From the NCBI GenBank assembly GCA_964187785.1, contig OZ076409.1, forward strand, positions 64,172,001-64,232,000: a stretch of 60,000 nucleotides of DNA, written 5' to 3'. The DNA comes from Amphiscolops sp. MND2022. Lineage: Eukaryota. Shown piece after piece: positions 2,308-57,199 of this stretch. Under the pieces are notes generated by a model. That model was not told the DNA's origin and did not search any database. It saw nothing but the letters and a program-made list of their open reading frames with translations. The first letter of the stretch is position 1. The number at the start of each line of letters is the position of its first letter. Made by a program: the position numbers and the translations under genes.

Positions 2308-3973
2308 TGTCGCAGCCCCAAAGATGCGATGGGTCCGGAGTGCATCAGTGAAAGATAACCAACGACTTCGACAAACATTCTAAATACTGATATTTTTGTT
2401 TTTTTTTCTTTTCATTTTTATCAAGTCATGTAAATTCTAGGTATATTTTGTATATTTGGATCATTGTGAGATTTTCCTGAGCTGTTATTGAAAGATAATT
2501 CATGTAAGAAGGCGCTAAAATACATGGTTCATTACAAATATTAGCGTAAAACTCTCTATGCTATGAATTCCGTGCTTATTATGCGTCAATATGCCGTAAA
2601 TGTTGTGACGTATAAGCGTCAAAAGTCATTTTTAGAATAGTTTATATGCGTCATCATACGTAAACTTGACTCACGCATATGCGGCATTGTACGTTTTTAA
2701 CTACAAGACAATATACGTTTTCGGATAAACTGCATATGCGGCAATATGCGTTTTTACAATGCAATTATACACTGTTGAGCAGTTCTTATGTTATCGTATG
2801 TACGTCAACATGCGGTTTCCGCAGTGAAAGTATGAACGAATTGTGCAATATGGATTATGGAGTGTATGTGCTATTATGCGTTATTGAATGTTGATGCTTA
2901 CATGTTGTATACGCTATCCTGCAGTACAGGGAATACCGCATATACGTCATTATGCATTTTTAGCTGTACTCTCATCATTTTGAAGTCATGTAGCGATTAA
3001 TTCATCTAATGATACTTGAAACGTATTATACAGCGTCTAACCTTGTTTTCCTAGGATTTTCACGGTCCCTTGATAATATTTAGGGTGTCATTGTAGTGTG
3101 ATTTAAAGGATATAAATAGAATGATGTGATTTTGACGTTATACTGTTTTTAGCTCTTTAAATAATGATACCTGTAAATGTGATTGTCATCCTTTTTGTAT
3201 TTTTTGGAAAACTGAAGGGACCATTCATTCGAATTTTATCTCTCTCATCAAGCAGTTGCTCACTTTTCAACCTGGTCTTTTGAAAGCAGTCTTTTTGACT
3301 AACATTGTTTTATCTCCCGAATTGTCTTTAGATAATTCTTTTGAATAAATTCAAATTCTTCCCCAACAGCCAAAATATCGTTTTCCTTTGAGAAAGATGG
3401 GGAACAAAAGAAGTAGAAGGTCCAGGAGATTGGAGACCCCGTCTCCAGAAAGAGAACTCAATGAAACACAGGTAGAAACATCAACCCAAGGTAATATTAC
3501 TTTGACAAATGCCGAATCTAATATCCATGGAAACCTTGACAATGATGAACTTAGGAACCAATTGATTGAACCTAGCCAATTAAGCAATGAAATACAAGCG
3601 TGGACTGAGAATTTTGAACAAAAGAACAATGATAGAACAACAAAAATGAGAGAAGAAATGGAGAACAAACTAGATGCAATCCTGAAGGAGATAAAATCTA
3701 ATAAAAGTGTATCAACAGTAACAAACCCAAGATCTGAAATGGATGATATACAAAACATACAGCCTCCGGGACCCAAAACTAATAGGTCTATTGGAGTACA
3801 CGCATCTCACATCTATAACTCAGACTCAGAAAACGACGATTATCCTCTACAAGCTTCTAAAATGGGAGACCTGAAACATCCTGCTAAACCATTGTTCAGA
3901 TGCGAATCTGATGTAGATGTAACTATACATTCGGACGAAGAGTCCGACGCAGAGGAAGTGGAGGATTATCACA
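2308..3973 (+). repeat. 5' LTR of E1 (1666 bp)
   Basis: Starts TGTCGCAG, ends TTATCACA; matches 17180-18847 with scattered substitutions and two small indels. Confidence 0.95.
3111..3349 (+). promoter_or_regulatory. Putative LTR TATA box (TATAAATA 3111-3118) and poly(A) signal (AATAAA 3344-3349) bracketing R
   Basis: Same order TATA, AATAAA, gag ATG in the E2 LTR (42626, 42729, 42766). Confidence 0.5.
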
Positions 3974-5094
3974 TGGTGACAGGAGCTAACAAACATCTCC
4001 ATAGACAAAGTTCACAAAACTCCCAACCCTTAAACAATACCATTGGATCCCGCGCAGATCGACAAACATCAACAGCCATAAAAACACCTTCTGACCCAGT
4101 AAACCAAATTGCCCAAGCAATAGAGAAACTGGCAAACAAAAATGCATCACAATCACTGTTTCATCCAAAAAACACATTGACTTTCAATGGAAAAAATGAG
4201 AAAAATGAGAAATTCGAATACTTCGAAGACTTGTTCCACACTACCCTTCGTATGCAGCCAAATCTAACCGAGGAAATGAAAATTAATCACTTCCACGCTC
4301 ACCTTAGGGGTTTAGCCTTGAAAACCTTCAAAAACATACAAAGAACTCCAACCACAACCCTAGAGGACATCTTGAAGGTCTTCCGTAGAAAATATGTAAA
4401 ACCAGAATCCAGTGCTTCGGCAAAGCACCGATTTAACAGACTTTTCTTTGACCCCGAAAACCAAAAACTACCAGACTTCCTCGAAGAGCTCCAAGAAAGT
4501 GCTGAAAAAGCGTTTGGAGACAATGCACATCAGATGATAGAGAATTTACTCTATGCAAAGATGCCCCCTCACCTTAAAAAATCCATCAATCAAGCCTATC
4601 TTGAGAATGGGAGTTACGAACAGATCGTAAAACATCTCGAGAGAGAGATGGAACTAAACGGCTTGGAGGCAGACGAACCGTCGGTCAAGACCCAAATGAC
4701 CGTCACCAAAAAAGAACAAAAGACTGACAAACCGACCAAAAAACAAAATGAAAACCCTAAAACGCAAACCCCAAAAACAGTACCCAACAAGACACTTAAA
4801 AATGACCAATGCCGTTATTGCAAAGAGGCGGGCCACATGATGGCCGACTGCCCCAAATTAGCAAAACGGCGTAAACTTGAAGAAAATCCGGATGCAGAAA
4901 AATGTCAAAACTGCAACACACCCGGGCATGAAGAGGAAAACTGCTACTTTGGTGCCAATATGGAAAATCGTCCATCGAAATGGAACCTTACTGACGCTCA
5001 AAAGAAAGTCATCGAAGCTTATAAACAAGCTCGAAAACCTATTAAACCAAAAATAGAACGACCTCAACAATCCTCTTCCAAGGATTTAAACTAG
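3397..5094 (+). CDS. gag: Gag of E1, starting inside the 5' LTR
   Basis: Open from ATG 3397 through the LTR end and PBS (EDYH|MVTG). Capsid-like FNGKNEKNEKFEYFEDLFHT; knuckles CRYCKEAGHMMADC and CQNCNTPGHEEENC; homologous to E2 Gag. Confidence 0.9.
   Translation: MGNKRSRRSRRLETPSPERELNETQVETSTQGNITLTNAESNIHGNLDNDELRNQLIEPSQLSNEIQAWTENFEQKNNDRTTKMREEMENKLDAILKEIKSNKSVSTVTNPRSEMDDIQNIQPPGPKTNRSIGVHASHIYNSDSENDDYPLQASKMGDLKHPAKPLFRCESDVDVTIHSDEESDAEEVEDYHMVTGANKHLHRQSSQNSQPLNNTIGSRADRQTSTAIKTPSDPVNQIAQAIEKLANKNASQSLFHPKNTLTFNGKNEKNEKFEYFEDLFHTTLRMQPNLTEEMKINHFHAHLRGLALKTFKNIQRTPTTTLEDILKVFRRKYVKPESSASAKHRFNRLFFDPENQKLPDFLEELQESAEKAFGDNAHQMIENLLYAKMPPHLKKSINQAYLENGSYEQIVKHLEREMELNGLEADEPSVKTQMTVTKKEQKTDKPTKKQNENPKTQTPKTVPNKTLKNDQCRYCKEAGHMMADCPKLAKRRKLEENPDAEKCQNCNTPGHEEENCYFGANMENRPSKWNLTDAQKKVIEAYKQARKPIKPKIERPQQSSSKDLN
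3974..3982 (+). promoter_or_regulatory. Primer-binding site of E1 (TGGTGACAG)
   Basis: TGG immediately after the LTR terminal CA; identical 9-mer follows the E2 5' LTR. Resembles tRNA-Leu-type PBS (inference). Confidence 0.8.
5085..5091 (+). promoter_or_regulatory. -1 ribosomal frameshift slippery heptamer T TTA AAC at end of E1 gag
   Basis: X XXY YYZ in gag frame directly before TAG; the -1 frame reads KLETPRL..., matching E2 KLTSPRL. Confidence 0.7.
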
Positions 5095-8000
5095 AAACGC
5101 CACGCCTTAGCAATCGAAACGCCCAAATAACAGAAAAACCACAAGATGACTGGCAGCATCAAGTGGAAACCATAAATATACAACTCAAACAACTCACCAC
5201 AGAACCAGAATACACACCCCAAACACATAATCACTCCGACATCGATGAACCTCCACAGGAATCATACTATGAACTTATGAGAGATGCTCCTGATAAGTAT
5301 TTTTCAGACAATACTCAAACCCCCCCCTTTACCTACAGATAAACCACCAGCAAATGAACACCCGAGTACTTTTTCTTGCAATGAACAAAAACAACCCCTT
5401 CTAGATGAAGATATCCCAAACCACATCCAGTTTGATCAGGAACGCAACCTGTCATATCTACCTATGTCAACCTCGCTAACATTGAAACGAAAACGCCATA
5501 TGTACTATATGCCAATGGACTTCGAAAAACTCACACTTGACGGACTCATCGACACAGGAGCCCTGACTAGTGCAATCTCCGAACAAGACCTTAAAAAAAT
5601 CAAATTAATTGCAAATGAAGCAATAAAAGATACTGGCCCCCCACCAAACTTTCAAATTATGGTGGCTAACGGTCAATTAGAAGTACCCATCGGCACAGTT
5701 TTACTTGAATTCGAAGTGGCTGATTTCATGTTACGAGAAAATTTCATTATCATGAAAAACCTACCAAACCCACTCATTGGTCTCTGCTTTCTCCGCAGAA
5801 ACAATGCAGTTTTTGATGTCGCACAAGGCATCCTAACTTTCCCATACCTCTCAATGCAACTAAAACCAGATACGCAGGTAACAATGCGTCAAGCAACGCC
5901 TTTATTTGCTGAAAATACATACACACTACAACCAGGTGAAACCCTCGCCATAGCAAGCAGAATGCCCCACCTGTTAGACCATGATGCAACAGGAATAGTC
6001 ACACCTTCACCACAATTCGAAAGCCACGACAGCATTTTCATCACATCGTCACTTAGTACGGTTAACAATAATGCTATCGGGTACCAAATAGTCAACTTCT
6101 CAGAACTTCCATATACAATAGTTTGCGACACCCATTTAGCAGACTTCAAAATCCTCACACCAGAACAAATTAAACATATACAACCGGTAGATCCAGCGAT
6201 GTTGTCATTCATGATACAGCATGAAGAAACCACCGAAATCTACATAAATGAATTACTGAAAGTTCCTTCACAAAACCCCGAACAAGAGTCTTATTGGTTC
6301 CCAACACCAGAAGATCCAGGAGACCCTACAACCTATACCCCAATCCAACAACGAATCTACAATGAACTCCTTGAGCTTAAAGAACTCGAACAACTCAACC
6401 CACAAGAAAATGAAAAATCCAGGAAAACTTTCCTTTCGAATTTCGACTGGACCGACACAACGCTCAACCCAGAAGAACAGAAACAAATTGAAGAAATCCT
6501 CATTGAATTCCATGACATTTTTGCCAGACATCGATTCGACATTGGCACCAATCGTGAATTTAAGGTTAAGCTTACACCAAATGATGACCGACCAGCATAC
6601 AGTCAAAGTTTACCAACACCAATCAACCTTAAAGATGACATTACGGTAGAACTAGCACTTCTACACAAATATGGAATCATAACAACCCTACTTTTCTCAA
6701 AATACGCTAGTCCAATTTTTGCACAACGCAAACCGAACGGACGCCTCAGACTACTAGTGGATCTTAGAAAAATCAACAACTTAGTCACCGAAGACTACAT
6801 CAACAATAACCACCCGGTAAGCACATTATCGGATGCAGCACAACATATGGCAGGAAAGAAACTTTTCTGCAAATTAGACTGCTCCCAAGCTTACCACTGC
6901 CTCCAAATGGCAGACTACCAATCTATCCAGATGCTTGCTTTCAACTTCGCAAGCCGAACTTTTGCTTACCGCAGACTCGCTCAAGGGCTTAGCAGATCTC
7001 TTTCAGCCTTCTCAAGCTTCATGAGGGAGTACCTTGACAAGGCGATCAAGGCCGACCAATGGGCGATCAAGGACGAACAATTACACGCAAAGGCGTGGCC
7101 CCTCAAGCTGACAAAGTCAAAGATTTCTTATCGAAATTGAGATTCCCTAAATCCAAAAAAGCACTCCAAAGGTATATAGGATTCCTAAACTATTACCGCA
7201 ATTACATCCCGAGACTCTCTGAACGTCTCTCTCCATTCTTTAAACTCCTTAAAGAAACCTCCAAATTCTATATACCCACTAATTTGGTCGAAGATTTCAC
7301 CAACCTCAACAAACTTCTCATGCCAATTAGCATTGAGACAACCCCTTAAAGATAAACAACTCATAGTAATGTCTGATGCAAGCTTCACAGCAGCAGGATA
7401 TGCTATCATGATAGAAGATGATCCCAACCAAAAACTCCAGTCCAAACGCAAAACCTATGCACCCATAGCATTTGGTTCGAAAACATTCAACCCAACACAA
7501 ACAAAATTATCGATCTATGCGAAAGAATTCCTTTCCATCTACTTTGCTTTTGTCGAATTTGGACACCTTATGTGAGGGAGCACATTCCCCATCATAGTGT
7601 TCACAGACAACAGAGCGGTTACCCGCTTTTTTCAAGCAAAACTTATTCCTCCAGCACTCTGGAATGCATGTGATTATGTCTTGCAATACAATTTTGTCAT
7701 TGCCCACGTTGCTGGTTCAATGAACACTGCGGCGGATTTCCTGTCCAGAACGGAAGTCAAGCCAGTCGAAAAACTCGAAATGAGCATAAGAAACGATATA
7801 CAAACGAAAGCGATAGAAGTCAATATACAATCCTCAGGTATCGTAGAAGAAGAACAAATTTACATCCTCCCTGATGATGAATTTGATGAAAACAAACTTT
7901 GGGAGGAAAAACAAAACGTGAGAAATCAGGCTCAAACTGAAACTCACAATGACCCAGAAAACAATGTTACTGAACTTCAACAATTTTAAAAACCAACATC

Positions 8001-9813
8001 CGGCTTAAACACATGCTCTGAAGGACATTTCCGAGACAATGCCAGGATCAGACTCGAACAAAACAATGACATTGTTCTTAGAAATCTCAGAGCTAAAATC
8101 GAAGGAAACCCTTTCGATGAAAACGACTTGGCATCTGACTACAGATACCAACATTACCTCCAAAACATAACCAGAATTGAAATCAAGCAAGAGGTTCTTA
8201 CTCGCAAATACTACACAGACACTGGAACCACTTCGCATTACCAAATTCTGCTACCAACACAACTCCTAGAAGAACTACTTCAAGCCTTACATGGCCACAA
8301 CTCAAACCATCCAGGTATCACAAAGATGATACAAGAGGTGAGGCAGAAATACTACTACCCGTGTGTTGCAAAATACATTAAAAAATGGGTGACTAATTGT
8401 CAAACCTGCATACAAACCAAAAGGATCAATAAGGACCTCCTCAGGACCGAACTACTTAATTGCCCAGAATGGGACCTCGGCCCCGAAGACATTCTCCGAA
8501 TGGACATCCTACCAAACCTTCCACCCAGTGGTGGATACGACCACATTATAACAGCAATTGATGTTTTCTCGCGATACTTGTTTGCTTACCCAGTGACTCG
8601 TATAACTGCAACATCAGTCGCTCGAGTAATAATGGACATTTTATGCAAACATACATATCTTCCAACAACACTAATCACAGACCTTGGAACACAATTCAAT
8701 GCCCAAGTAACCCACGAAGTAACAGCAGTCCTAGGTGTTGAGATTAAACATGCAACAATGAAACACGCACAAACAATAGGACTCCTGGAAAGACCACATG
8801 CTCCAGTAAAAACCCAACTTAAAGCAGCAACTGGAGAATTCCGACATAACTGGCATAAATTTCTACCGTTAGCAGTTCTAAACCACATTACAACATATCA
8901 CGCATCGCTTGGTTGCGAGCCTTCACGAGTTTTTCACGGCCGCATACCACATAACATACTGGACTACAAGTTAGGATATAATCCTAATCCAAAATACCAG
9001 CCGCAAACTGATGTCGCAGAAGAAATACAACGAAGAATGCGAATATTACTAGACCAGACCAAAAAGAACATAATGCAATCCTAACTTAAATATAAAGCTT
9101 ATTATGATAGGAAGGCCAAGGCCTCACCGCTGGAAACAACGGACTACTGCTACATTCTTAATCCGAAGGCCGACACACAGGCAACGAAAATACCATTCCG
9201 TGAATTCAGATGGCAGGGTCCTTACAAGGTTGAAAAAGTCCTTCCTAACAACAATTACATAGTTAGGAGACTAGGAACAAACAAAACACAACTCTTACAC
9301 CGAATTCGGTTGAGGAAATTTACACCGCTCGCACCTTTAGCTGACATTTTTGTCCGAGAATCCGATTGGCAAAAAGATGATCAAATGCCAGTGGCTCACG
9401 ATGACTTATATGCTCAATCATGGAACACAAATTTTGGACCTAATCCCTTTGAGGACAGCCCTCCGGATCATACACAGAACACTGATGATATTGAATACGT
9501 ATCTGTTGATGCACCTGAAAATAACCACCCTCCCTCCCTCGAATTTCCAAAAAACAGTGGGGGGAGCCCAGTGGAACAGTCCACTGAACGCAAAGAAGAA
9601 AATTATGATGAAATCCAGCAAGAAAGCCAAGATAATGATACAGAAATCTCCCAAAAAACCCCAAAAGAAAAGACACCAGATACACAAACCCAAAAAACTC
9701 CAGAAAATTCACAAAATACCCCATTGCAAGAAGAACCCATAAATACTCGTGGTGAAAAATACAACTTACGCCCTAACCCTAACCCAAACTTCTCAGACTC
9801 TTACAGATATTAA
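5091..9813 (+). pseudogene. pol: Pol of E1 (protease, RT, RNase H, integrase), disrupted
   Basis: LIDTGA; RLLVDLRKIN, KLDCSQAY; MSDAS; HGHNSNHPG...CQTC; MDIL/TDLG/LLER. Lesions: probable +1 in the C-run ~5320, RT YVDD deleted ~7061, frameshift ~7320, stops at 7573, 7987, 9082. Confidence 0.93.
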
Positions 9814-10000: not shown

Positions 10001-13000
10001 TTAGTTTTTCTTCGACTTAGAAGACTTTGGCTTGGTGGCTGCAACAGACTCACTAGAATCGTCTTCAGAGCATCGGGCAACAGACACGCTAAGTCGCCCA
10101 AGGGAGGGCCCAGGAGAAGGAGTACTGGCATTACTGGTCGATCTACTGAGACTAGGAGTGGTCCCACCAGACTCTACAACAACTTTCTCAGCTTGTAGGA
10201 CAGATCTCTTGTAGGCAGCTTCAAGTTTGCCCCGTAGAGCAGTTCTTCGCGGGCCACTACCCTTGAGGAAATTCCAAATTGAAAATTTTTTGTCAATCAA
10301 CAAGTCCTGACCTCTGCCCAACAAGCGAAATGCTCGCCCAATTAAACGCTGATCTCTGTACAAACTGGAAACATGCGGAACGCTCAAGTAAGATTGCTGC
10401 AGACAAGTCACGCACCATCGGAACATCTCTTTATCAGATGATAATGTTGGGACTGGCACTTCAAAATGATCAACTTTGCCAACAAATGGAGGCAAGCAGA
10501 GACAAGCGTAACGAAACAAATGAAGCAGGTCCTGTCGACTTTGCATTTCATAATGTGAGGCAAGGTATTGCACCCAATTGTCGTCCTTAACCACAGAATC
10601 AACAATTTGGTAGCCAGAGAACGATATTGGCTGACACACTTGACTTTATCGCTAGGAGAAAGCCATCCTGAATTAACGAAATAGGTTGTGAGCTTTTCCA
10701 CTGCACTAACGTAGTGCCTCTCTGGTCCTTCTACCATAACAGCAAAATCGAATGACGACAATCCTCTAATCAGATTTGAATTGACAAGCTCATGTTTCAG
10801 CAGAACTTTGCAAAAAGATTTGCAAAATGCAATCGATTGATCAATGAATTTGCCCGGCCGGGGCAATTTGCTAGCGATCACTAAATTATGATAGTCAACA
10901 TTCAAAACGAATTCCGAAGCAGTTTTGAAGGGAAGGTCGGTTCGATCCAAATCGAGGCACAAATAATTGTCCCAATCAGTAATCCTTCCCAAAGTTTGAT
11001 CGGGTAGAATATTCTGCAGTTGGCAATACAGAAACACAGCAAACTTGTTGAAAAGTCTAAATCCACTATCCATTTGACCTTCCAATTCGGAGAAAGCTGA
11101 ATTATCTAAAACAAACAACATGGAATCCAGTTAAACATTCCCCTGAAGTCAGATATACGAAAAATACAACAAAAAGAACGTCGAAAAGATATACTATACA
11201 CTATTCCCCATGTTGATTTACGAAGAATATACGTCATTAGAAGGAAATTTTTATCAAATATACGCCATTACACACTTTAAGCTATGCCGAGTATACGTTA
11301 TTATACGGAACTCGCTGCAAAGCTTATACGAACACGTGCATAAATACTATACGTCAAAGTACAGGAAGAAAGATGGTGAGTGTACGTCATTATACGCATC
11401 TTACAAGAAAAGGTATGACGTCAACGATTGGAATGAATTGTAATGTCTATACGCTATCATGCGGAATGAGGCGTGATGACTATACGTCATTATGCGGATG
11501 CAGCAGTGTGAAGGACGAGTCACAATGGTAATGCATCACTATACGGAATGAGGTGTGATGACTATACGTCATCATGCGGATTCAGTAGAACAAAGAACGA
11601 GACATCGATGAGATGCATCATTACACGGAACGAGCTATGACAACTATACGTCACTATGCGGTTTCAGCATGATAGAGAGCAAATTACAATGTCGTTACAC
11701 AAAACGAGTTACAATGACCATACGCCACTATGCGGAATACGAATAACTTCGCGGAGCTACCTTGTAATGCTAAATTAAAAAGGAGATGCACATATATGCA
11801 GATTAATCCGGAATGATTACAATGAAATATGCGGAATTAGACTTAGAAAAGCAAAAATTGCAGTGTTTTGTTCGTACCGGATAAAGCAGGGCAGTAGTAA
11901 CGGTCAAAGCAACAAAACGTGGAAAAAGACGCAACTACTAGGAATTAGGAGAGAAATTGGACGTTGGGAAGTTAACGCACATAATATGCAAAAAGTTAGT
12001 CAGGTTAACAAACTGTCCCGAAAAGACTAAATATATAAAGACAACTCACAATGGTCAATCACACATCGTATGATGAATAGACGGGCCAGGTAGGCTGTGT
12101 CCAGCTTGAAACATTCATCGAGGGTGTTTGGCTAAAAGCAGTGGGGAATGAAATAAATTGAAACTCGGACTTTTGTAATACGTGATAAAGACAACCGACC
12201 TCTCTCATGTGGAAGCGATAAATTGGCAGTCGCGAAACCTGATTGAGATGCTGCAACACATGGTCCCAGTTCGCAGAAAGCTGTTCAATAATGATGGACG
12301 CCTCATGGAGCGAGTAGTCGAGCGTGATGACACACTAAAAACGAAAAATTGGTATTATTTTCAGCATACTAACCAAGACAAATGCTCTCAGGAAAATTCC
12401 AACTTTGTGTAAAGTCGGCAATGAATGGAGCCAGTCTCGATCGAGAGCTGTACGAAGCTTCATCAGGAGGTAGTCGAGTATCGACCGGAAGTCGTGCCTC
12501 TCGATAATTTGGGTTGTGGGCTTTTCAAGAGACTTTTCAAAATCAGCAGGTCCATATGTTTTGACAACTTTCGGTCTTCGGTTCCCGGGCAGTGTCGAAG
12601 CCAAGCAATTGCCTAATTTGTCTCCACCCCCAAGGACACTGATGCAAGAAGGAGGTTGCTCGAGTAGGCTCAGAAACGACGAAATTAAATCCAAAATGCG
12701 TCGGGGAATCAAAACCCCTCGGGGGCCAGTACCGATGCAGACACGGTAGAGTACATTTCCTGTCCAGAAGCACACGAAGAGACGAACGTGAGTTGGGTCA
12801 TGCTGGAAGATGATTGAATAGACCCCAGAAGATGAAATTGCAGTCACGCAATAATTTACCAGCTCTCGAAACATGTACACCAAGATTCCCTGGGAACAAA
12901 ATAAAACTCAGAAACTCAAATGACAATTTGATCATGGGTAGAATTTCCTGGTTGAGAACGCTAACTTAAATTGGAAAGTAGGAGAATTTACTTACAAAAA

Positions 13001-14362
13001 TGCGATGTTCGCTCCAGTTGAGTGATGTAGCTTGTTGAACACTCGGGAGGTGTCGTACCAACTCATCATGGACTCCAGTCAGACTATTTATATGGCCTCC
13101 AAACCGCAACCCGAACTCAAGGATGCAAATTTGCGACAGAACTTCTTCGGAAGGGCTGGTATGACTGGCTAAATCAGGTACTGAGGTTTGGTTTACCAAG
13201 GGCCGGCAAGGATCCAGTTGTGGCGCAATCGGGTAGGTGTCTTTCGCCTTTCTTTTAGCCTCGCTGAGAGGCACCCCTTGCAGTTCTTTCTCTTCCCGAT
13301 CGAAGAGTGGCATTCCAGGAATTTCCATGCGAATCCTGTGTTCCTTTACTAAGTGGCCCTCAGTACGGTAGTGGGACATTAATTCTAAAACCCCTCTGCT
13401 CATAAGGGATAACTCCACTTTGCAGACTCTACACCACCATTTGTAGGGTGTTTTCTCCTTTTCAAGGGGCCCAGTAGCCGAAAACTTTTAGACAGGATGT
13501 TTCCTGAACATATGGGTTTTCAGGGAGTATTTAGGTCTTTGCCTTTTCCCTCGTACAAAAGAAGATCCAGCCGTTGGAGGGTAAGGCACCATAGGCAGCT
13601 CGGAACTGTTTGCTGCATTGGGATTGGGGACAATCGTTGTGTCTCCTTGGTTCCCCACGGGTTCGTTTGTGACCATTAATGAAATCGGTCGGTCCCACTC
13701 GGCTTCCTCACCATGCAGAAGAGCAGGAGGTAATCGGTCTAGTACCCTAGACAAGGCAAGTATCTCATTTCTCGTGATGCTGATTCTCCCTGGATTCACT
13801 TGAGGCATCATCTCTCCTTCATCGATCACAAGGTTTTCAGTCGGGGTATTGGTTAGATTAGCTTGAGCAATTGGTTCCGGTTCAGCAATATGGTGAGGAG
13901 GGGAGGTTATCTCTTCTTCGTGAGAACGATCAAGGATGTAACGACTAAAAGGAGAAGACATCATGTGGGAACTTCCAGCTACCATAATCCCTTCCAGCAG
14001 TTCTTGGGATATTTCCCCAGGAAATAAATCCATTGCAGGAGGAGGAGGAGTGTCACAACTTTGAGTTTGAGTGTTCTCGCTTCGTTCTGCTCCGAGGGGC
14101 TGTTCTACGTGATGCTCAATCCCTTCACAAGTTTGATGGAGCACAACTACCGACGAATCATCGTCTCGCACGACAGAATCTGGCACCCCTTCTTCTGCGG
14201 GGGGATCTTTTGGGACGAGAGTTTTCTCTGCAGTAGAATGGGGCAATACAGACGTGGAAGGACCAGGGTTGTTTGTCTGGATAGCTGGGGAAATGACTTC
14301 CAATGGGGTATATATCTTGGTAGGGGATCTTCCAGGAGACCTCTCTGTTGCTCCAAGTTCGA
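10001..14362 (-). pseudogene. Spliced antisense gene of E1: BED-like zinc finger plus degenerate hAT-transposase-like protein
   Basis: Predicted exons 14362-12996, 12889-12404, 12334-12200, 12131-12050, 11105-10001, joined by in-frame GT-AG introns. Motif WWCRVCKVELSLMSRGVLELMSHYRTEGH. One stop (13488-13490) and one frameshift (~10620). Colinear homolog in E2; the 5' start exon is not located. Confidence 0.8.
11450..11740. repeat. Degenerate ~82-83 bp tandem repeat rich in TATACGTCATTATGCGG, inside the 944-nt intron of the E1 antisense gene
   Basis: ACTATACGTCA recurs at ~11479, ~11561, ~11643; related motifs span ~11190-11840. Confidence 0.65.
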
Positions 14363-16173
14363 CTAAAACAATCAAACCGTCACCGTCTGAGTAAATCGGA
14401 CTGGTTTCAAAACAAATGATCTCTGTTTTAGCATTACCGGAAAAGAAAGCGGAAATACAGCTAATTCGGAAGCCACAAAATCCTAACCGGAAGTTGATAA
14501 GCTTCCGCGAAGAGAAATTTAGCTATTGTAGTACTCTAGCTTCAAAATAGATGTTAGCCTGGCCAGCTTTTCATCTTTTAAAAATTACCGATCGGAAAAA
14601 ATTTGGACAGAAACAAAATTCACTCGAAAGAGTAAAATGAGTCAAACTTACCAGGAGTAGCGGTAGTCGGAGATTTGTAGCCCCAAGAAATGAAGTGTTG
14701 ACGAGACAGCATATCCTTGCGGGATTTCCGCCTTGAATTAGAATCCATCTCTCGAACAAATGAGTGTAAAGGGTGTTGAAAGTACAATAAATAATTCAGA
14801 ATGGTAACAATTAAATACGGGAGTTAAGATGAGTGAGGAACTGAAATTAAACTTAGGAGCCCTGGATTGAGGGGAGTACGAGAAAAGACTAAATAACTGG
14901 AAACTAACTATGATATACGACGAAAAGACTGATTAAAAAAGTTTAAAATTAAGCAGATTGCAGAAACTGGTGAAATAATCAAAGGCGTGGCGTAACAAAA
15001 CGAGGCAAAGAAGCAAATGAAACATGTATTTATTGAATATGCTTGTTCAAACTGAACGCTGATTGGTCAATTAAAATGTCATTCACCACTGCCAGGGTGA
15101 TAGATTGGTTAATTGACAGCCGCAAATCACTTCCTACTTATGCGCAAAGCAGAGATGGTTAGAAGACGTAATATATAAACTTCAATACATACAAGCACGC
15201 GGCAGTATACGATTTAAGCTGTGACGAACATACGTCAGTATACGAACTACAGGACAAGAGTGAGCGTCAACGCCCATACCAAGCAATGATGAGCATACGG
15301 CATTATGCGGAATTACCATAGCCACGTGCAATACAATTTACAGAGCTACATGAGATTATGCGTCAACATGCGGATCAACTGCAGATGATTATACTGTAAT
15401 ATGCGGATTCACAAAGTGGTTACGCGGTAATATGCGGAATTACCATAGCGGAGTATAAAGAGGTATTCTGAACCACACGAACGGCAACAGAACAGACCGA
15501 ACAATTACGTTACGTAATACGATGCACGATAGCCACACACAACGGTGTTAGAGTGGGTATTGGAAAGAAACGAAAAGTGACTGGTTACTCAATGGCAATG
15601 GACAACTCCCCCAAACAATTACTGATTACAATGCGCTTTTAAAGTAAAACTTACAAACAAAAACGTATAAACTGATGTTTATTTCAATATGGTTGCTTGA
15701 ATTTTTAGTTTCGAACATCTTGTTGGGAAAACTAAATTTTAGTCATGTAAGATGATTATATGTTTCCTTTATACTATATTTTCATATAACGGAAGGAGAG
15801 TCATGTAATCCTTTGATGATGATCATAATTTTGTTTGTTAGCTATTAAACTAAATGAAACACCGCCAAAGGGTTGAGGTGAAGAAGACATCCTCCTAAGA
15901 AATGCCTTAAATGGAATTTGTTTACGTTGAGTTACAAGAAATCACGACAATTTCCTTGAATCCAAATCCTAGCGTCAGGGTAGAGACCAAATAAGGAAGC
16001 AGTGAAACCCTGAGAATCATGACACTCAACTTTTTCGCGGGTTTTTGTCGAAGAAAAGGGAGAACTGAAAAAGACATCACCATATGGTCTACAATAACTT
16101 TAAGTTCAGTTGTCTCTAATTTCAAAACTTTGCCTTTTGCTGATCCTTAATTCATAAATACATCTTCAAAATA

Positions 16174-17223
16174 ATGAATCCAACACAATCTAACATCACT
16201 GAAGATCTGGGTTACTCGCGCATTTCCCATGATGTGATCGATATATCAAGCGAGTCCGGAGAAGAATTTGTCGTGGAACCTGGCAATATCGCACAACTAA
16301 ATGAAAGATTTAGAATCAACACTATGGGATCTAATATCTTGGCCGCTTTTGTGGGATCAGCGACAGCCGCTTTGTTCCCTCCTTCGAACTCAGTCGATCG
16401 ACAAGGGACCATTGATATCGCTGGCACCACTATTGAAAGGGAGATCATGGAGTTGATTGAAGAAAGTCCACTTTCGCCTTCTTCTTCCTCCTTGTCTTTC
16501 ATAGACTCAGAATTTGAAGAAGTGGACATGTCGCCGAGAGACTCCACCGGAGCATCAGAAAGACAGTTAAACAATTACGGGCGACCCGTCGCTGCTATTT
16601 TGCCCACGCCTAGGATTCCCAGACAACAATCAAATGAGATGATCAGACCAATACCAACATACCCACTGAACTTCTCACAAGAATCTTCCAACTTTCAGCA
16701 AATCAATACAACGAATGACCAAGGGATTACAAATCCTTCAGCGTTCGAAGCAGGTGGTACACATTCACAAAATGCATTCGTGTTAACAGAACCGCAATAC
16801 CCAGCTGTAGGGGACATCACACCCATGGTAATACATTTGCCCCCTAGATCTATGGTGGATGTTTCTGCCAATTTTATTGGCCCATCTCAACAAGTTACCC
16901 AATTTGGATTCCCATTCAACATCCTATATTGCCCCAACGTTCCTGCGGTAGTAGCCAACGAAGGACAAATCTTCCGGCTGTTTCCCACGGTCATGCCCAA
17001 CGTTTCCGGATACTGTCATTGGTGTGGTCGCACTTTCGATCAAATTGCGTTAGAGACCCTCGGGGACTATCTTGGAGCAACTGCCTATGATGGGGAAACA
17101 GTCAGAGATCGTGGAGTGAGGTCGAGAGCTTTCATCGACGGTTTTGAAGCTGCGTTGTTTATCTTTAAAAACGCAGGACTGTCGCAGCCCCAAAGATGCG
17201 ATGGGTCCGGAGTGCATCAGTAA
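16174..17223 (+). CDS. Extra sense ORF (ORF3) of E1, 349 aa, unknown function; ends inside the 3' LTR
   Basis: Intact ORF. N-terminal VIDISSESGEE; C-terminal CHWCGRTFDQI...AFIDG...SQPQRCDG aligns gap-free with E2 ORF3. Confidence 0.75.
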   Translation: MNPTQSNITEDLGYSRISHDVIDISSESGEEFVVEPGNIAQLNERFRINTMGSNILAAFVGSATAALFPPSNSVDRQGTIDIAGTTIEREIMELIEESPLSPSSSSLSFIDSEFEEVDMSPRDSTGASERQLNNYGRPVAAILPTPRIPRQQSNEMIRPIPTYPLNFSQESSNFQQINTTNDQGITNPSAFEAGGTHSQNAFVLTEPQYPAVGDITPMVIHLPPRSMVDVSANFIGPSQQVTQFGFPFNILYCPNVPAVVANEGQIFRLFPTVMPNVSGYCHWCGRTFDQIALETLGDYLGATAYDGETVRDRGVRSRAFIDGFEAALFIFKNAGLSQPQRCDGSGVHQ

Positions 17224-18847
17224 AAGATAACCAACGACTTCGACAAACATTCTGAATACTGATATTTTTGTTTTTTTTTTCATTTTTATCAAGTCATGTA
17301 AATTCTAGGTATATTTTGTATATTTGGATCATTGTGAGATTTTCCTGAGCTGTTATTGAAAGATAATTCATGTAAGAAGGCGCTAAAATACATGGTTCAT
17401 TACAAATACTAGCGTAAAACTCTCTATGCTATGAATTCCGTGCTTATTATGCGTCAATATGCCGTAAATGTTGTGACGTATAAGCGTCAAAAGTCATTTT
17501 TAGAATATTTTATAAGCGTCATCATACGTAAACTTGACTCACGCATATGCGGCATTGTACGTTTTTAACTACAAGACAATATACGTTTTTGGATAAACTG
17601 CATATGCGGCAATATGCGTTTTTACTTTTACAATGCAATTATACACTGTTGAGCAGTTCTTATGTTATCGTATGTACGTCAACATGCGGTTTTCGCAGTG
17701 AAAGTATGAACGAATTGTGCAATATGGATTATGGAGTGTATGTGCTATTGTGCGTTATTGAATGTTGATGCTTACATGTTGTATACGCTATCCTGCAGTA
17801 CAGGGAATACCGCATATACGTCATTATGCATTTTTAGCTGTACTCTCATCATTTTGAAGTCATGTAGCGTTTAATTCATCTAATGATACTTGAAACGTAT
17901 TATACAGCGTCTAGCCTTGTTTTCCTAGGATTTTCACGGTCCCTTGATAATATTTAGGGTGTCATTGTAGTGTGATTTAAAGGATATAAATAGAATGATG
18001 TGATTTTGACGTTATACTGTTTTTATCTCTTTAAATAATGATACCTGTAAATGTGATTGTCATCCTTTTTGTATTTTTTGGAAAACTGAAGGGTTCATTC
18101 ATTCGAATTTTATCTCTCCCATCAAGCAGTTGCTCACTTTTCAACCTGGTCTTTTGAAAGCAGTCTTTTTGACTAACATTGTTTTATCTCCCGAATTGTC
18201 TTTAGATAATTCATTTGAATAAATTCAAATTCTTCCCCAACAGCCAAAATATCATTTTCCTTTGAGAAAGATGGGGAACAAAAGAAGTAGAAGGTCCAGG
18301 AGATTGGAGACCCCGTCTCCAGAAAGAGAACTCAATGAAACACAGGTAGAAACATCAACCCAAGGTAATATTACTTTGACAAATGCCGAATCTAATACCC
18401 ATGGAAACCTTGACAATGATGAACTTAGGAACCAATTAATTGAACCTAGCCAATTAAGCAATGAAATACAAGCGTGGACTGAGAATTTTGAACAAAAGAA
18501 CAATGATAGAATAACAAAAATGAGAGAAGAAATGGAGAACAAACTAGATGCAATCCTGAAGGAGATAAAATCTAATAAAAGTGTATGAACAGTAACAAAC
18601 CCAAGATCTGAAATGGATGATATACAAAACATACAGCCTTCGGGATCCAAAACTAATAGGTCTATTGGAGTACACGCATCTCACATCTATAACTCAGACT
18701 CAGAAAACGACGATTATCCTCTACAAGCTTCTAAAATGGGAGACCTGAAACATCCTGCTAAACCATTGTTCAGATGCGAATCTGATGTAGATGTAACTAT
18801 ACATTCGGACGAAGAGTCTGACGTCGAAGAGGTGGAGGATTATCACA
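17180..18847 (+). repeat. 3' LTR of E1 (1668 bp), carrying a copy of the Gag N-terminus with a stop at 18586-18588
   Basis: Direct repeat of 2308-3973; TG...CA ends. Confidence 0.95.
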
Positions 18848-19373
18848 GCTGCCATCTCTGCCAAGGCATATCTATAAGATGTACGGCATGTTCCAAAGCC
18901 TTCATCCAGCTCCTCCTTGATAAATCCTCACTGTTCAGCCATGGAGTCGAAAGTCTCACTCGTTTTCAAGAAGTCATCACTAGGTTGGCGCATAAGCAAG
19001 ACTGCAACATGTTTGGGCTCATCAAGTTCTCCCGAAGATTTGTCCACTTTTGCAATCAAAGTCTAGTTGTACTTTCCTGGTAGTTTGTAGAATCCAACCA
19101 CATCTCGAACACTCTCGTGAACTAAAAAGTGTCGAGAGTGTCCAAGAAAAAGTGTTTGGACAATCTCTTGCACCAAAAACCAAAGCCAAAAGTGCACGAA
19201 TTTCTAACAATGACTTTGATGACACACCTTCATAACAAAATATAGCAGGCAGACCCAGGTGAACAATCGAAACACTGTCAAAGGTTTACTTGCAGCCTAT
19301 GGAAAGTCCATCTCTCACGCATTCGTCATATTAAACAAGACGGGAACGTCTAAAGTCGGCGCTATATCTAAGG

Positions 19374-19573
19374 NNNNNNNNNNNNNNNNNNNNNNNNNNN
19401 NNNNNNNNNNNNNNNNNNNNNNNNNNNNNNNNNNNNNNNNNNNNNNNNNNNNNNNNNNNNNNNNNNNNNNNNNNNNNNNNNNNNNNNNNNNNNNNNNNNN
19501 NNNNNNNNNNNNNNNNNNNNNNNNNNNNNNNNNNNNNNNNNNNNNNNNNNNNNNNNNNNNNNNNNNNNNNNNN
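19374..19573. other. Assembly gap (200 N)
   Basis: Run of N. Confidence 1.
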
Positions 19574-21900
19574 GAATTTGTTTCAACATTCTCCCTGGTG
19601 CAGATATAGTCATTGTCAGTTTTCTTTGAAAAGGCTGCAGCGAATGTTTTATTCAAGGTCTGGTTGGAGTAGTCGGTTGCGCGAAAGATTGCTTTGGTAC
19701 TAGTTGCACGGGTAAATGGTGGTTTGAACCCGGTGACGGCGTTCACGGGTTATGGAATAGATACCACTGTGATTGTTGATGTCTTCAACTCCCCTCCTGT
19801 TCAGGGAGATTGCAATAGTCTTCAAAGCAATATTCTCTCCTCCAACATTACTCGCGCAGCATGTCTACTCTGAACAGACTTTTTAAAATAAAATTTCATC
19901 CATCAAAAACATCCTGCAAATTTGAAGACTGTAAAAACGCTTGCTCAACAGTTTGAAATAGTGTCGCGGTTTGAAAAGGCAAAACGTAATAAAAATTAGG
20001 TTTTTTTTTGAAAATGCTTCATCGAAACTACTGTTATTTGTGTTCTTTTCATATTCTACGTTGTCTACGTTCTTCTCATATCATTGTCGTCATACTTCAT
20101 AGCATATCATCAATTCAAACTTGCAAAATGTTGCCAATTTGTAGACTTTGGTCGAGCCTAAACAAGAGCCGTTTGTACAACCCTACAACAGTAATCTTGA
20201 GATGCATCAAAGCATCTACGACTTTGTCATTTTGAACCATTGAAACTTCGGGAGTGTCACTTACAAAAGTTGTGACTCGCTTTTTCATTTTCATTTTCAT
20301 TTTTTTTGTGTTTTGGAATCAAGCAAATATATTCCACGTTTAACATTCGATGAAAGCACACACGTACAAAAAATACATTTGTTTTGTTGAAAGATCAATT
20401 CGCCAAAAAAGTAGCTTTTGCACAAATACTATAAACGATTTAGGATATGCTGAGGTCCAAGCCTGGATAACGGCAGTTCCCACTAAAAGGAAATAAGGCA
20501 AGAGAAATAGGTTTTGTGCTATGGGCTACCTTGTCACTGGAATAAGTGCCTTCTTTCAAACTCCGCTGTTGATTGGCACAATGGAAAAGACCGCTCCAGT
20601 TTCGTTGGAGCATCAGTTTTATCAACGAAGACAGTCTAGTACCGGTGGAGGAGTCATTTTGTACTCGACACACGCTGCGTGTTTTTTACATTTGGTTACG
20701 TCATCTTCGTGTCGAATCTATTACGTAACGTTTGGGAAGAAAGTTATCGCGAACGTTACGTAATAGATTCGACACGAAGATGACGTAACCAAATGTAGAA
20801 AACACGCAGCGTGTGTCGAGTACAAAATGACTCCTCCACCGGTACTAGACTGTCTTCGTTGATAAAACTGATGCTCCAACGAAACTGGAGCGGTTTTTTC
20901 CATTGTGCCAAGCAACAGCGGAGTTTGAAAGAAGGCACTTATTCCAGTGACAAGGTAGCCCATAGCACAAAACCTATTTCTCTTGCTTTATTTCCTTTTA
21001 GTGGAAACTGCCGTTATCCAGGCTTGGACCTCAGCATATCCTATATCGTTTATAGTATTTGTGCAAAAGCTACTTTTTTGGCGAATTGATCTTTCAACAA
21101 AAAAAATGTATTTTTTGTACGTGTGTGCTTTCATCGAATGTTAAACGTGGAATATATTTGGTTGATTCCAAAACACAAAAAAAATGAAAATGGAAAAGCG
21201 AGTAACAACTTTTGCAAGTGACACTCCCGAAGATTCAATGGTTCAAAATGACAAAGTCGTAGATGTTTTGATGCATCTCAAGATTACTGTTGTAGGGTTG
21301 TACAAACGGCTCTTGTTTCGGCGCGACCAAAGTCTACAAATTGGCATCATTTTGCAAGTTTGAATTGATGATATGCTATGAAGTATGACGACAATGATAT
21401 GAGAAGAACGTAGACAACGTAGAATATGAAAAGAACACAAATAACAGTAGTTTCGATGAAGCATTTTCAAAAAAACCTAACTTTTATTACGTTTTGCCTT
21501 TTCAAACTGCGACACTATTTCGAACTGTTGAGCAAGCGTTTTTACAGTCTTCAAATTTGCAGGATGTTTTTGATGGATGAAATTTTATTTTAAAAAATCT
21601 GTTCGGAGTAGACATGCTGCGCGAGTAATGTTGGAGGAGAGAATATTGCTTTGAAGACTATTGCAATCTTCCTGAACAGGAGGGGAGTTGAACACATCAA
21701 CAATCACAGTGGTATCTATTCCATAACCCGTGAACGCCGTCACCGGGTTCAAACCACCATTTACCCGTGCAACTAGTACCAAAGCAATCTTTCGCGCAAC
21801 CGACTACTCCAACCAGACCTTGAATAAAACATTCGCTGCAGCCTTTTCAAAGAAAACTGACTATGAATATATCTGCACCAGGGAGAATGTTGAAAAAAAT
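19574..21900. repeat. Long inverted repeat (foldback palindrome): arms 19574-20732 and 20752-~21900, 19-nt spacer
   Basis: ...TCTATTACGTAACGTT / AACGTTACGTAATAGA...; mirrored ORFs (20521+ / 20721-, 20008+ / 21243-). Arms differ by scattered substitutions; the left arm is cut by the gap. Confidence 0.95.
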
Positions 21901-29526: not shown

Positions 29527-30951
29527 TGTCGTAACCATCAACACTCCCTTGAGAGTCAATTGAATTCTTTAGGGTGGTTATTTTAGTTAATTTCGGGTGA
29601 GTTTAACTTGGGAAAATCTACTCGGGTTTTGCGTCTATTTTCACTGTTCAGATTTTCTTGCAGTCCGTCTAACCGAAGGTCTATATTCGTTTTAGAATCA
29701 TCATTGCATCCTCCTATCGCATTTTGTATGCTTTGTAACAATTCCTCCTCGATTGCTGAGTAAATTGCCTCGAGTCAGTGCAAATTTAGATCTTTTCTAA
29801 TATCTCCAAGCTTTCTGGACATTTGCGAGATCTCTGAATTAATTGCTTTACTAGTTTCTGTAGTGACTCCACTTTTCTCACTAATATTAGTTTTCAAAAG
29901 TAACCTAAAGATATCTCCTTTTCGATTGGCATTTCTATGCAATTCTCCCTGACTCTATGTCAACAGCAATTCACTTGCTGCTTCCTGTCCTTCGAAACTA
30001 TTCTCAGGAAAGTTTCCTAACATCAGATCCATATTTCCAAAATCTGACAACACGCCAGATAGCCTTGAATGCTTTTCCTTAGCCTTTTGTTTTCTAGTTG
30101 AAGGCTTGACAAGAGATTGGATAGCGTTCCAAGATTAAATTTCAAGTTATGTGACTGATAGTCAGAGCAATCAAGTATTTCAGTGTTAGCGATATTTAAG
30201 TATCAACATAATGAATCCTTCAATAACAAATTCTTGCTGTGTATAGTTGCAAAATGATGACACCCATCGTTTAGGTTGTCGTAGAGTTAAAATAAGGATG
30301 ACATCATTTAGGTTATAAATAGTAACAAGTTGGTTTTTACGCCAACTTACATAATGGTCTAAAAATACAAATCGTAGTAATCTCGGAAATTTTACAACTA
30401 TACGTAAAAATAAGGATTTACATGCTGACAACACCTAATGTTCTTAAAACAGTACTAAATAAATATTGGACATCATGTCAAACTGACTGAACTAATAGCA
30501 AGTAAGTTATTTGTAGAATGGAAGTGGACGTAACGTCCATTTGGCTGCAGTAAAACTACAATGTATACAAGCGATGTGATTGGCTAGTTGAGCTACTGAC
30601 AACGCGTCAACAGGACCGCATCGTAGTACAGGTTGAACACGTTTCCTTTAGCACGTACTGTGAGCACACCTATCTGAATATATTCTTAACCTTCCTAACT
30701 TGATTTACAATGCAACAAACAACAATTAGACGCATCCGAGTAACACTAGTTCATGATAATTATCAGTTATTCAATATTATATAAAATGAAACACCACTAG
30801 ACGTACAGTGAGTTTACAGTAGTTTGTTGCGGTCGAAAGGACGCTCGGTCCAATTCGTTCTAAATAGGTAGAACATCAAGCGGACGGACAAAGTTGTGAT
30901 CTTGGGTAATGATCTCATATCAGTTGCCGTCCTAAGCGGCAGCTTGCGATA
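29527..30951 (-). mobile_element. Solo LTR of a third family related to E1/E2 (1425 bp), TSD GTTAA
   Basis: Minus strand starts TATCGCAAGCTGCCGCTTAGGACGGC (E2 LTR: TGTCGCAGGCTGCCGCCTGTGACGGC) and ends GGTTACGACA. GTTAA at 29522-29526 and 30952-30956. Encodes PSTRKQKAKEKHSRLSGVLSDFGNMDLMLG, similar to the E2 Gag N-terminus PTTRKQKKTRKSRGLEILSDIENLDIMLG. Confidence 0.85.
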
Positions 30952-36717: not shown

Positions 36718-37031
36718 TGATCTCTTTCACTATATCCCCCCTACAGCAAAAAGGGGGGACATAGTGAAACGCTATTAAATACATGTATTGCACATTCTAA
36801 TCGCGCAGATCTGCTCTTATCTAACAACGCTTCTAATTGGCTGAGTGGGGATTTTGATGATAAGAACCAATAAAAAGTGTCGTTAGTTATGACGACATCA
36901 ATTGATTGACAGAATAGCATGAGAGATTAGCCAATAAGAGATAAATATAAATGAGCCACAAACATTAATATTCTCTAGGGGGGACATAGTGTAACGAGTG
37001 ATATAGGGGGGGGGCATAGTGAAAGAGATCC
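36718..37031 (+). mobile_element. MITE copy 1 (Merlin-like, GG...CC TIRs)
   Basis: TIR GATCTCTTTCACTAT.TCCCCC; degenerate 8-bp flanks AACGCTAA / AGCGCTAT. Confidence 0.8.
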
Positions 37032-37073
37032 AGCGCTATATCTAATTGTTGAAATGAATTAGTTATATGATTT

Positions 37074-37360: not shown

Positions 37361-37646
37361 TATGATTTTTTAATGATATCGAATGCAATTACTTTTCATA
37401 TTACAGTTATGAAAAATGCTTCTAAATTGTCAATGCAATGAAATCATAATGGTACGTTGTCTAGTGTATGCACTTAAAACAACTAATTCGTGTTATCTAC
37501 TTGCGACGACGTTCCATTTGAATTGTCTTTTTTTGGTATAAGCGTGTGAAGAAATACAAATTGTTGGATAAACTAAAAAACGTTATTCCAGTATTGTGCG
37601 GCATTATTGGAAGCTAATTTGATTAGATAGGAATTGATTTAAACTG

Positions 37647-55306: not shown

Positions 55307-56428
55307 CTAAACAGAAGGAGATGAAATTTGGCGGTAAGCTTCCTTGAAAGAAATCCAGTATACCGCATTAGAAAACTTCTGGAAGTGTCTTGAAAATTTG
55401 AATGAAATGAGTTATCACGCGCTCATTAGTGGAAACAGGAAGTATATTGTGAACGAAATTTGACCCTGATCAAGTTGAATTAGTTTAAAATAAAAAACTC
55501 GAACCAACTTGTACTTGAAGACATTCTGTTGAGGGTACCTTCTCGGAGATGATATTGGTCCGGATAGGGTTGATGAAGAGGAAACAAGCTAATTGCTGCT
55601 ATGCCGTGAAAAGGGGATCAGTAGTACCCCGGAGAGAAGCAAAAAGGAGAGTCGGCAACGAAGCTGGATGTGGGCTGAGACAAGTGCTGATCAAGTGGTT
55701 TTGAATAAAATATAAACGGAATTCAAATGGAATTGGAATGTTAAAGCAAAGTGATGATAAAGATTGGAGAGTTGGAGTTCGTGGCTGAAGAAGATTACCA
55801 GACTAATATTATTTAGCTATCTACATGGTTAAAATTGTGCATGGAATCTGCCAGTGAATTGTACAAGGATCTCTTCATTTGTTACAGTTTACTTAGTTAG
55901 TAGCCATTTACGGCCGTTTGCCCTGTTTTGTTTTACCACTTCGTTCAGTTACCATAGTTACCCTTGGTTAAAATTTTCGCCATTTTGGACTATTTAGGTT
56001 TATTATTTTCGCCATATTTATTATTCATTTTACAATTTATCAAAGCTTGTCGCTGATTGGACGAAGCCATTTTGAGAAAGATTGGGTGTCGCATGCCGTT
56101 AATTGCTTTCAGGCGAGTCGATATTTACCCACTTAAGAGGGAAATATTTGATATCAACAACTTGAGTGCTGTTCACACCCTCTTTGATGATGACTTAGAT
56201 GAAGGGTAAACATCAAGTTAACAGGGGCCGCCAGCCAGTTAAGGAATTCCATTCGGGAAAGTTTACGATTGATCAGGGTAATCGACCGAAGATTTAACCG
56301 CCAAAGTGGAAACTTCGGGAAAAGGCCTGATTCGGCTCACTTCTAGGAGGCAGTCAATTCATTCTGATTTCAAACCCGCTGAAGACAACTCACCCTACAA
56401 AACTCTCAAAATTGCGAAGAAGTCCATA

Positions 56429-57199
56429 ATGAATAAATTCAACAAAGCAAGAAAGCTTTTTGGCTTCTTAGACTTCAGTTCAGATTCATCAAATGATTCA
56501 GTGATCTACATAAGCAGCGATGACGACACCTCTGACGGGTGGAACTCTGACTGGTCATCGGACACTGAAGAAATGGTGAGAGGGGTCGAAGCGCAGGTAC
56601 AGGCCCGTCCCATACCAATTGTTGGAAGAAGGATGACGACAGCAAGCGACGAACCGGGCACTAGTACCATGTTCTCCGGATTACAAACTACGCCTAAATT
56701 GGATAGGGCCTACTTTGACGAGAAAATTTGTTATGCCCCTCCATAAGGCAATACAAAAAGGAAGATTGAGTTGTGCAAAACAATTTTGCCGGTTGTGGAA
56801 TCACCTATGTTGCCCCCTCCCCATGAAAGGGGACCTTCTCTGGATACGCCTTTATCGCAACCCAAGATTAGTGATTTTCACGCATCCTACCACATACAAA
56901 ACGCATTGCCCTATGCAGATATCAGTGCCGAAAGATGCAAGAGTTGCATGGTATGTGGGAAATCTGTGGATGAAATCCAAGCCGCAAAAATAGTGAAATA
57001 CATGGAAGCCTCAACGCCGAGAAGTGAGCCGGCCTATATTACGGCACTCACGAGAGAAGCCTATATTAACGGTCTCAACGCGGAAAGTCTTCTTTTCATT
57101 GCACCCGCTGTGTCGCAGGCTGCCGCCTGTGACGGCACAAAGTTGACGACAACAGCAGTAGGACAGGAGGCAGTGCCAGGAACATTGCCAATATACTAG
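56429..57199 (+). pseudogene. Extra sense ORF (ORF3) of E2, one in-frame stop at 56744-56746; ends inside the 3' LTR
   Basis: VIYISSDDD near the N-terminus; CMVCGKSVDEI...AYING...SQAAACDG homologous to E1 ORF3. Confidence 0.72.

Follow-up and report, generated by a model that had tools for sequence, protein, structure and literature searches.

Can the end of an LTR on which integrase acts also serve, codon by codon, as the end of a protein gene? The question is raised by an open frame of 349 aa with an AUG start, here called ORF3 (16174..17223, forward strand), in the retroelement E1 of a window from Amphiscolops sp. MND2022 (GCA_964187785.1, OZ076409.1, forward strand 64,172,001-64,232,000), the window being the whole 60,000-nt stretch of DNA analysed. 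A first-pass annotation had proposed that ORF3 reads across the boundary between the internal region and the 3' LTR, and we found that it does so in the same register in 108 of 108 copies, drawn from four clades. Leu336 (CTG) ends with the LTR's TG, and the TCG CAG that follows is Ser337-Gln338, just as the annotation had derived its 'SQ' from the LTR start; the CDG and the stop codon also lie inside the LTR. The LTR-coded end (17180..17223, forward strand) thus holds the end of Leu336, 13 codons and the stop, overlapping the attachment (att) site, and the position of the polypurine tract (PPT) just upstream (17168..17179, forward strand) is itself coding (K-N-A-G-L), with a 4-nt purine run adjoining the LTR. 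ORF3 is confirmed as a genuine accessory gene under selection, so far unannotated, in a high-copy Ty3/gypsy lineage, across which 13-30 of its ~260-350 codons are LTR-coded.

E1 is bounded by a 5' LTR (2308..3973, forward strand) and a 97.6% identical 3' LTR (17180..18847, forward strand), the latter with CCGCATA repeats in U3, a TATA box at 17985, AATAAA at 18218 and a gag start near 18271. The PBS, TGGTGACAGGAG (3974..3985, forward strand), is common to all clades, and TGGTGACAG follows the 5' LTR in seven of seven elements. Gag and pol (3349..9813, forward strand) encode capsid, CCHC, PR, RT and IN, with pol split into several frames in E1; an intact relative shows the Pfam order PR-dUTPase-RT-RH-IN. 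The host element is Ty3/gypsy by its order of gag, then PR-RT-RH-IN, with a dUTPase between PR and RT, a domain seen above the Pfam cut-off between protease and RT at L131:2735-7927. Gag starts inside the LTR, ~190-240 codons ahead of the PBS (window 3397-3973 and 18271-18847), and in six of seven elements, E1 included, the gag frame continues open across the PBS, such that the LTR-terminal CA and the PBS are codons; dN/dS for the LTR-coded part of gag was 0.29, from one pair (four others were left out for absence of the start pattern). Since gag starts and ORF3 ends inside the LTR, both LTR ends are coding. E1 has no target-site duplication (TSD; flanks GCAAC vs. GCTGC) and may be a recombinant or rearranged copy; its flanks (2300-2307, 18848-19400) form no TSD, and a gap of 200 N lies near 19400-19600.

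The window holds two further members of the lineage. E2 (LTRs at 41590-43351 and 57111-58871, TSD CCTAC) carries an ORF3 at 56411..57199 (forward strand) that putatively starts at AUU (56411), has its last 28 codons in the 3' LTR and, in this copy, is interrupted by one premature stop (56744-56746). An internal tandem duplication in E2 (48682-52038, ~1.68 kb, 97.5% identical) spans the integrase end and the end of an antisense gene described below. A solo LTR of a third clade (29527..30951, reverse strand, TSD TTAAC) retains a decayed ORF3 tail, SQAAA*DG...VLPI*, the code that the annotation had read there, although this LTR starts with TA rather than TG. Five of six further elements from the genome show the order LTR, gag, pol, large antisense gene, ORF3, LTR; in the sixth the upstream part is interrupted and the 3' half is as in the other five.

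We searched the 1.07-Gb genome with four clade queries, obtaining at least 150 matches for each. A pattern coding for SQxxxCDG and starting at TG matched 7,797 times, vs. 19 for the reversed control. The LTR boundary is fixed by target-site duplications of 5 bp, present in nine of 10 LTR pairs fetched from the first 100 matches listed (one was ambiguous). A strict pattern recovered the ORF3 domain in 108 of 130 loci, the remaining 22 being ten 5'-LTR stretches and 12 copies failing the pattern, and the distance from TG to the first Cys was identical in all 108. The copies fall into four clades, for which E1, E2, PGGV and CGQPN are labels of this analysis; in a tree check over 69 columns, three of the four labels marked one side of a branch and PGGV required two changes. 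The LTR-coded tail is 13 codons long in the E1 clade and 27-30 in the others, where it ends in a P-G-[TV]-[LIV]-P-like motif. The families are very abundant and many copies near-identical; of 81 distinct copies, the domain was interrupted by a stop in two, an early stop was present in one, and the usual stop was read past in two. The frame is also open elsewhere, being stop-free for at least 330 aa in 105 of the 150 best E1-type copies, a list biased to high scorers.

The gapless match of 65 aa between the E1 and E2 proteins that the annotation had counted by eye was reproduced by BLASTP as an ungapped alignment of 67 aa with 18 identities (E 2e-9), all 18 within the 65-aa span; the two proteins could be aligned by BLASTP in this C-terminal domain only. 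Between clades the domain is 27-42% identical, vs. 86-93% for an RT stretch, and ORF3 identity tracks RT identity (Spearman 0.87 over 15 non-independent pairs). A profile search returned 383 ORF3-related clusters at E <= 0.001, and the ten looked up had no protein names and came from ENA, with one JGI member. One cluster, P0175, matched this genome at just 30-41%, and the ORF3 family therefore likely extends to other hosts.

Selection was measured by Nei-Gojobori counts over 19 pairs of intact subfamilies, every sequence used in one pair only; as some pairs share branches and pS is near 0.6, the ratios are approximate. Purifying selection was found in all four clades. The dN/dS ratio was 0.07 for the internal core, 0.16 over the whole LTR-coded part and 0.14 past LTR codon 8; for the N-terminal arm, ten non-E1 pairs gave 0.14 and six E1 pairs 0.20. 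The att end is coding sequence as well, as had been claimed, and neither outcome that the annotation named as fatal to its claim, an ORF3 closed or unconserved in other copies or one free of purifying selection, came about. The other two reading frames gave 2.0 and 0.94. The five codons past the hairpin (see below) in the E1 clade, taken alone, gave 0.52, which was not significant (P 0.11).

The first 24 nt of the LTR (17180-17203 in E1) form an inverted repeat whose complementary arms, TGTCGCA and TGCGA[CT], encode 'SQ' and 'CD'. In 31 sequences, 87% of cells pair, G-U pairs are tolerated and four of 10 pairs show two-sided change, although the structure was derived from these same sequences and relatedness inflates the shuffle test. 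Synonymous divergence is about halved: LTR codons 1-8 show 0.33 and the seven codons that precede the LTR 0.29, vs. 0.60-0.65 on either side. The 'SQ' is therefore doubly constrained, the LTR start being also hairpin and att site, and the conservation of 'SQ..CD' belongs in part to the DNA or RNA level. Could the overlap then be incidental, 'SQxxxCDG' being merely what the att site and its palindromic partner spell when translated, with no functional protein coded in the LTR? The pairing arms and the reduced synonymous change speak for that idea. Beyond the hairpin, however, differences at codon positions 1, 2 and 3 number 54, 56 and 157 with zero gaps, and the codon pattern is lost in the 90 nt after the stop (158, 149 and 162, with 54 gaps). 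The LTR-coded Cys and Gly moreover behave as protein positions: among 43 representatives the Cys codon is TGC in 31 and TGT in 12, the Gly is present in 42 with all four codons used, and all three stop codons occur. In E1-clade subfamilies that have lost the hairpin, C-x-G is kept while its middle codon varies (D, V, S, A, M). With these comparisons of codon position and dN/dS over the 19 pairs, incidental overlap is refuted for the lineage, and we give it next to no credence.

The hairpin is strong in the non-E1 clades (-13.9 to -16.9 kcal/mol in the E2 clade), and about half of the E1-clade subfamilies fold it weakly or not at all. The purine run before the 3' LTR also differs by clade: all 26 PGGV and CGQPN representatives have a G-rich run of 5-8 nt, all 12 from E1 a run of 3-4 nt and all five from E2 a run of 1-2 nt. 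The two clades present as full elements in the window, E1 and E2, thus appear to lack a canonical PPT, and one E2-clade element nevertheless has 99.65% identical LTRs, a clean TG end and a TSD. A purine tract is likewise missing at 57099-57110 of the window and in the E2-clade loci L052 and L060, and the E2-clade elements include young copies with clean ends and TSDs.

At its other end, ORF3 begins differently among the clades. E1-clade frames start at AUG and read M-N/D/S/Q. In the other three, conservation begins at I-A-K-K, and 32 of 35 distinct rows lack an in-frame Met upstream of it (the motif was missing from three loci, and many rows are close relatives). The Ile codon there is ATT in 29 rows, ATA in five and ATC in one, vs. 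216, 158 and 185 for all Ile codons in the frames, and its surroundings, with A at -3 in 34 rows, C at -4 in 33 and G at +4, resemble an initiation context. Selection is evident in the stretch from this Ile to the first Met (dN/dS 0.18, P 2e-7), and the same comparison detected none upstream of the Ile. The simplest reading of these codon counts is a putative AUU start in the three clades (56411-56413 in E2).

The N-terminal arm of the protein is of low complexity, acidic and rich in Ser, Thr and Pro (27%). It contains a SIM-like motif, VIDISSESGEE in E1 (16234..16266, forward strand; aa 21-31) and VIYISSDEE in the E2 and PGGV clades; the CGQPN clade has other residues in place of the forward core, leaving Y-x-S-S-D-E-E, and the match is a second, reversed motif, DDDIQVI. 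The pattern occurred in 13 of 21 long library relatives vs. 0.46 expected by shuffling, a comparison to be read knowing that it was fitted to these very sequences. Constraint within the arm is strongest over the nine codons of the motif, with dN/dS of 0.06 and 0.10 vs. 0.15 and 0.21 elsewhere. The passages on SIMs in PMC12751080 describe a loose motif, a hydrophobic core with a Ser/acidic flank in either orientation, and the ORF3 motif fits in having such a core and flank within an unstructured region. Farther along, a proline-directed phosphosite-like motif of the form [ST]PxSP (SPLSP in E1, 16465..16479, forward strand; aa 98-102) occurred in 18 of the 21 relatives vs. 0.6 expected by shuffling. 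A host SUMO gene, split by an intron, lies at G000:C6:22762143.

The C-terminal domain (17014..17220, forward strand) comprises C281-x2-C284-G, two helices predicted to form a helical hairpin, and C342-x-G344, so that one of the three near-invariant Cys of ORF3 is LTR-coded. Non-E1 clades have an additional invariant upstream Cys, and in 33 of 36 rows a His lies 18-29 residues before the CxxC, at a fixed place per clade; the window's own ORF3 has no such His, with Tyr-Cys there instead. We infer a zinc site made by the CxxC, the LTR-coded Cys and the upstream His. Two AlphaFold models gave two confident helices after the CxxC (pLDDT 70-90; pTM 0.48 and 0.37), but most of the LTR-coded tail was under pLDDT 50 in both, which weakens the case for a metal site. 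The domain's net charge is near 0 (-2 to +2) and it is therefore not an obvious nucleic-acid binder. We found no Pfam, PDB or fold match for ORF3. The motif of the zinc subunit RPB10/RpoN, a CxxC plus an adjacent Cys-Cys pair, is not matched by ORF3, which has a single Cys 61 residues after the first and no CC pair; the host RPB10 gene is at G000:C12:54945625, split by an intron.

Head-to-head with ORF3 lies an antisense multi-ORF gene (10001..14522, reverse strand) with a C2H2-like motif. It encodes ~700 + 190 + 340 aa and is present in all four clades (L132, L133, L136, L137, L139, L142). No Pfam family reached the cut-off, TRP28 was not matched by the antisense ORFs, and of 223 relatives the 120 listed were all without names. 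Upstream of the gene, on the antisense strand, a conserved AGCCCTGATCAAGC resembles, by eye, the end of a ~40-nt intron. The gap between the two genes (14523..16173 in E1, on neither strand in particular) measures 1.0-1.9 kb among elements and contains CCAAT boxes, with a TATA box in E1 (15172) and CCGCATA repeats as in U3; from these features it may be a divergent internal promoter. CCGCATA occurs in the U3 of 11 of 12 E1-clade subfamilies vs. none of 12 others, and in internal region and U3 alike in three of three E1-clade elements. Shared 7-mers between the two regions were overall weakly enriched (z 1.1-3.3 in seven elements) and could be host-factor sites.

Given its position, its motifs and the absence of a membrane segment, we read the ORF3 product as a nuclear regulator that activates or de-silences the element's own promoters, a tentative assignment to which we would give a probability of about 0.45. 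The protein would probably be made from the internal promoter, might dock on SUMO-modified chromatin factors via its SIM-like motif, and would activate or de-silence the U3 and internal promoters, perhaps with the antisense zinc-finger protein as the DNA binder alongside it. ORF3 and the antisense gene would then be early genes sharing one divergent promoter, and the LTR-driven gag-pol RNA would be late. The overlap with the LTR would persist since both the stop and a probable metal ligand are encoded past the att site, the same bases thereby serving integrase and protein. Selection, the SIM-like and [ST]PxSP motifs, the host SUMO gene, the shared CCGCATA and co-divergence with RT support the activator; the looseness of SIMs, the replaced core in CGQPN, the neutral domain, the weak sharing of 7-mers and the window copy lacking the His weaken it.

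The same features have been weighed under other functions. A post-transcriptional factor in the manner of Rev or CERV would bind full-length RNA, for example at the U3-start hairpin, and export or protect it; the invariant Cys and conserved [ST]PxSP recall CERV, and a hairpin that tolerates G-U and changes on both sides in four of 10 pairs would suit recognition as RNA. We think this unlikely, as there is no sequence or fold link to either protein (Rev appeared just at E 2.9 amid noise), no Arg-rich tract bar a few Arg in helix 2 of a charge-neutral domain, and an own start context for ORF3 where CERV is spliced and partly common to Gag. SIMs are common in repressive complexes, and selection alone is without direction, so that ORF3 could instead bring SUMO-dependent co-repressors to the element and control its copy number with the very same motifs. 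Against such a repressor stand the very abundant families with their many near-identical copies, and the presence of ORF3 in every clade together with its co-divergence with RT suggests benefit to the element; we regard it as improbable.

A role as cofactor of reverse transcription or integration, in which ORF3 recognises the LTR-end hairpin and helps to set the plus-strand start or the integration site in elements whose PPT is weak or missing, would answer how a young, clean E2-clade element arises with a purine run of 1-2 nt (3-4 nt in E1), in a clade where the hairpin is strong; the SIM could in addition tether integration complexes to chromatin. Yet ORF3 is equally conserved in the clades with a G-rich PPT of 5-8 nt, the hairpin is weak or absent in half of the E1-clade subfamilies, and we saw no sign of packaging into particles, leaving the cofactor at least as improbable as the repressor. 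Far less probable is a role in cell-to-cell spread as a membrane protein of the env or sORF2/FAST kind. ORF3 does occupy the env position, and the account of Oikopleura Tor elements in PMC4402516 has env expressed from an internal promoter. Against this, the arm is acidic and Ser/Pro-rich, no Pfam envelope family was matched, and no segment reached transmembrane strength in any of 43 representatives, the maximum 19-residue hydropathy being 0.5-1.5 with the usual cut-off near 1.6; the membrane reading is largely refuted.

ORFs crossing the PPT into U3 are familiar from complex retroviruses; in the literature searched we found no such ORF described for an LTR retrotransposon, and no description of the ORF3 protein family. 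The first-pass annotation had likened ORF3 to nef and sag, and the likeness holds for position, with a frame running over the PPT and att site into U3. It does not hold otherwise: nef and sag are membrane-anchored, by a myristoyl Gly2 or a TM helix, and largely LTR-coded, whereas ORF3 has no anchor (E1 starts read M-N/D/S/Q, with no TM segment) and a small LTR-coded share. The accessory region of foamy viruses (tas, bel2/bet), where accessory ORFs precede the 3' LTR and one enters it, is closer. The sections of PMC3185757 on these viruses describe an internal promoter and a transactivator that binds and acts on the two promoters, together with an ORF running into the 3' LTR. The element here differs in being an env-less Ty3/gypsy, with a putative internal promoter that is shared, divergently, with an antisense gene, and no Tas or Bet homology was seen among the Pfam, PDB and BFVD matches listed; ORF3 thus appears laid out like the tas/bel2 region, without family membership being implied.

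Among retrotransposons the nearest precedents, as far as the excerpted sources go, are CERV, Retand-type ORFs, rotifer ORF3s, the Tor env and sORF2. CERV of C. elegans Cer1 is, in the text available of PMC10309623, a nuclear, Cys-rich protein with a putative C4 finger, phosphorylated at S214 for genomic RNA export; like ORF3 it is an accessory protein of a new kind from an animal LTR retrotransposon and has invariant Cys, and its proline-directed phosphorylation finds a counterpart in the phosphosite-like [ST]PxSP. From the same text, CERV has three folded domains, is spliced and shares part of its sequence with Gag, whereas ORF3 has a single small domain and a frame of its own downstream. The portions of PMC11963269 and PMC7264820 on the extra ORFs of plant Retand, Grande and RIRE2 describe no sense ORF over the LTR boundary. 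Animal gypsy elements with extra ORFs include those of bdelloid rotifers, for which the relevant part of PMC5408684 gives a dUTPase in pol and a non-env ORF3, and Drosophila MDG1 with sORF2 (10.1101/2025.03.14.642691); the extra ORFs are, in those excerpts, enzymes or transmembrane proteins, and neither Pfam nor hydropathy places our ORF3 in either group.

LTR starts bearing this code number in the thousands in the one genome and form a large natural data set on the triple use of one sequence for priming, integrase and protein. Should the SIM prove functional, an animal transposon would encode, in ORF3, its own means of acting on SUMO-dependent silencing, and counter-defence by retrotransposons could be tested directly. 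Two further departures from the textbook cycle that lend themselves to testing are the PPT-less clades and the conserved putative AUU start. A wider account would have an animal LTR-retrotransposon lineage evolve complex-retrovirus-type regulation on its own: a divergent internal promoter driving a zinc-finger gene and a SUMO-docking anti-silencing protein, a zinc site completed by a Cys encoded in the integrase attachment end, ORF3 dose throttled by the AUU start, both LTR ends protein-coding, and some clades priming the plus strand without a PPT, guided by the LTR-end hairpin. We doubt that all of these parts hold jointly.

Elsewhere in the window, a satellite-like tandem array (~24150-28500) repeats an 84-nt unit over 40 times, at 60-100% similarity among copies, and each of the three units examined is interrupted by stops in all six frames. 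Two elements with long inverted repeats, MITE- or foldback-like, lie at 36719-37957 and 31321-32221.
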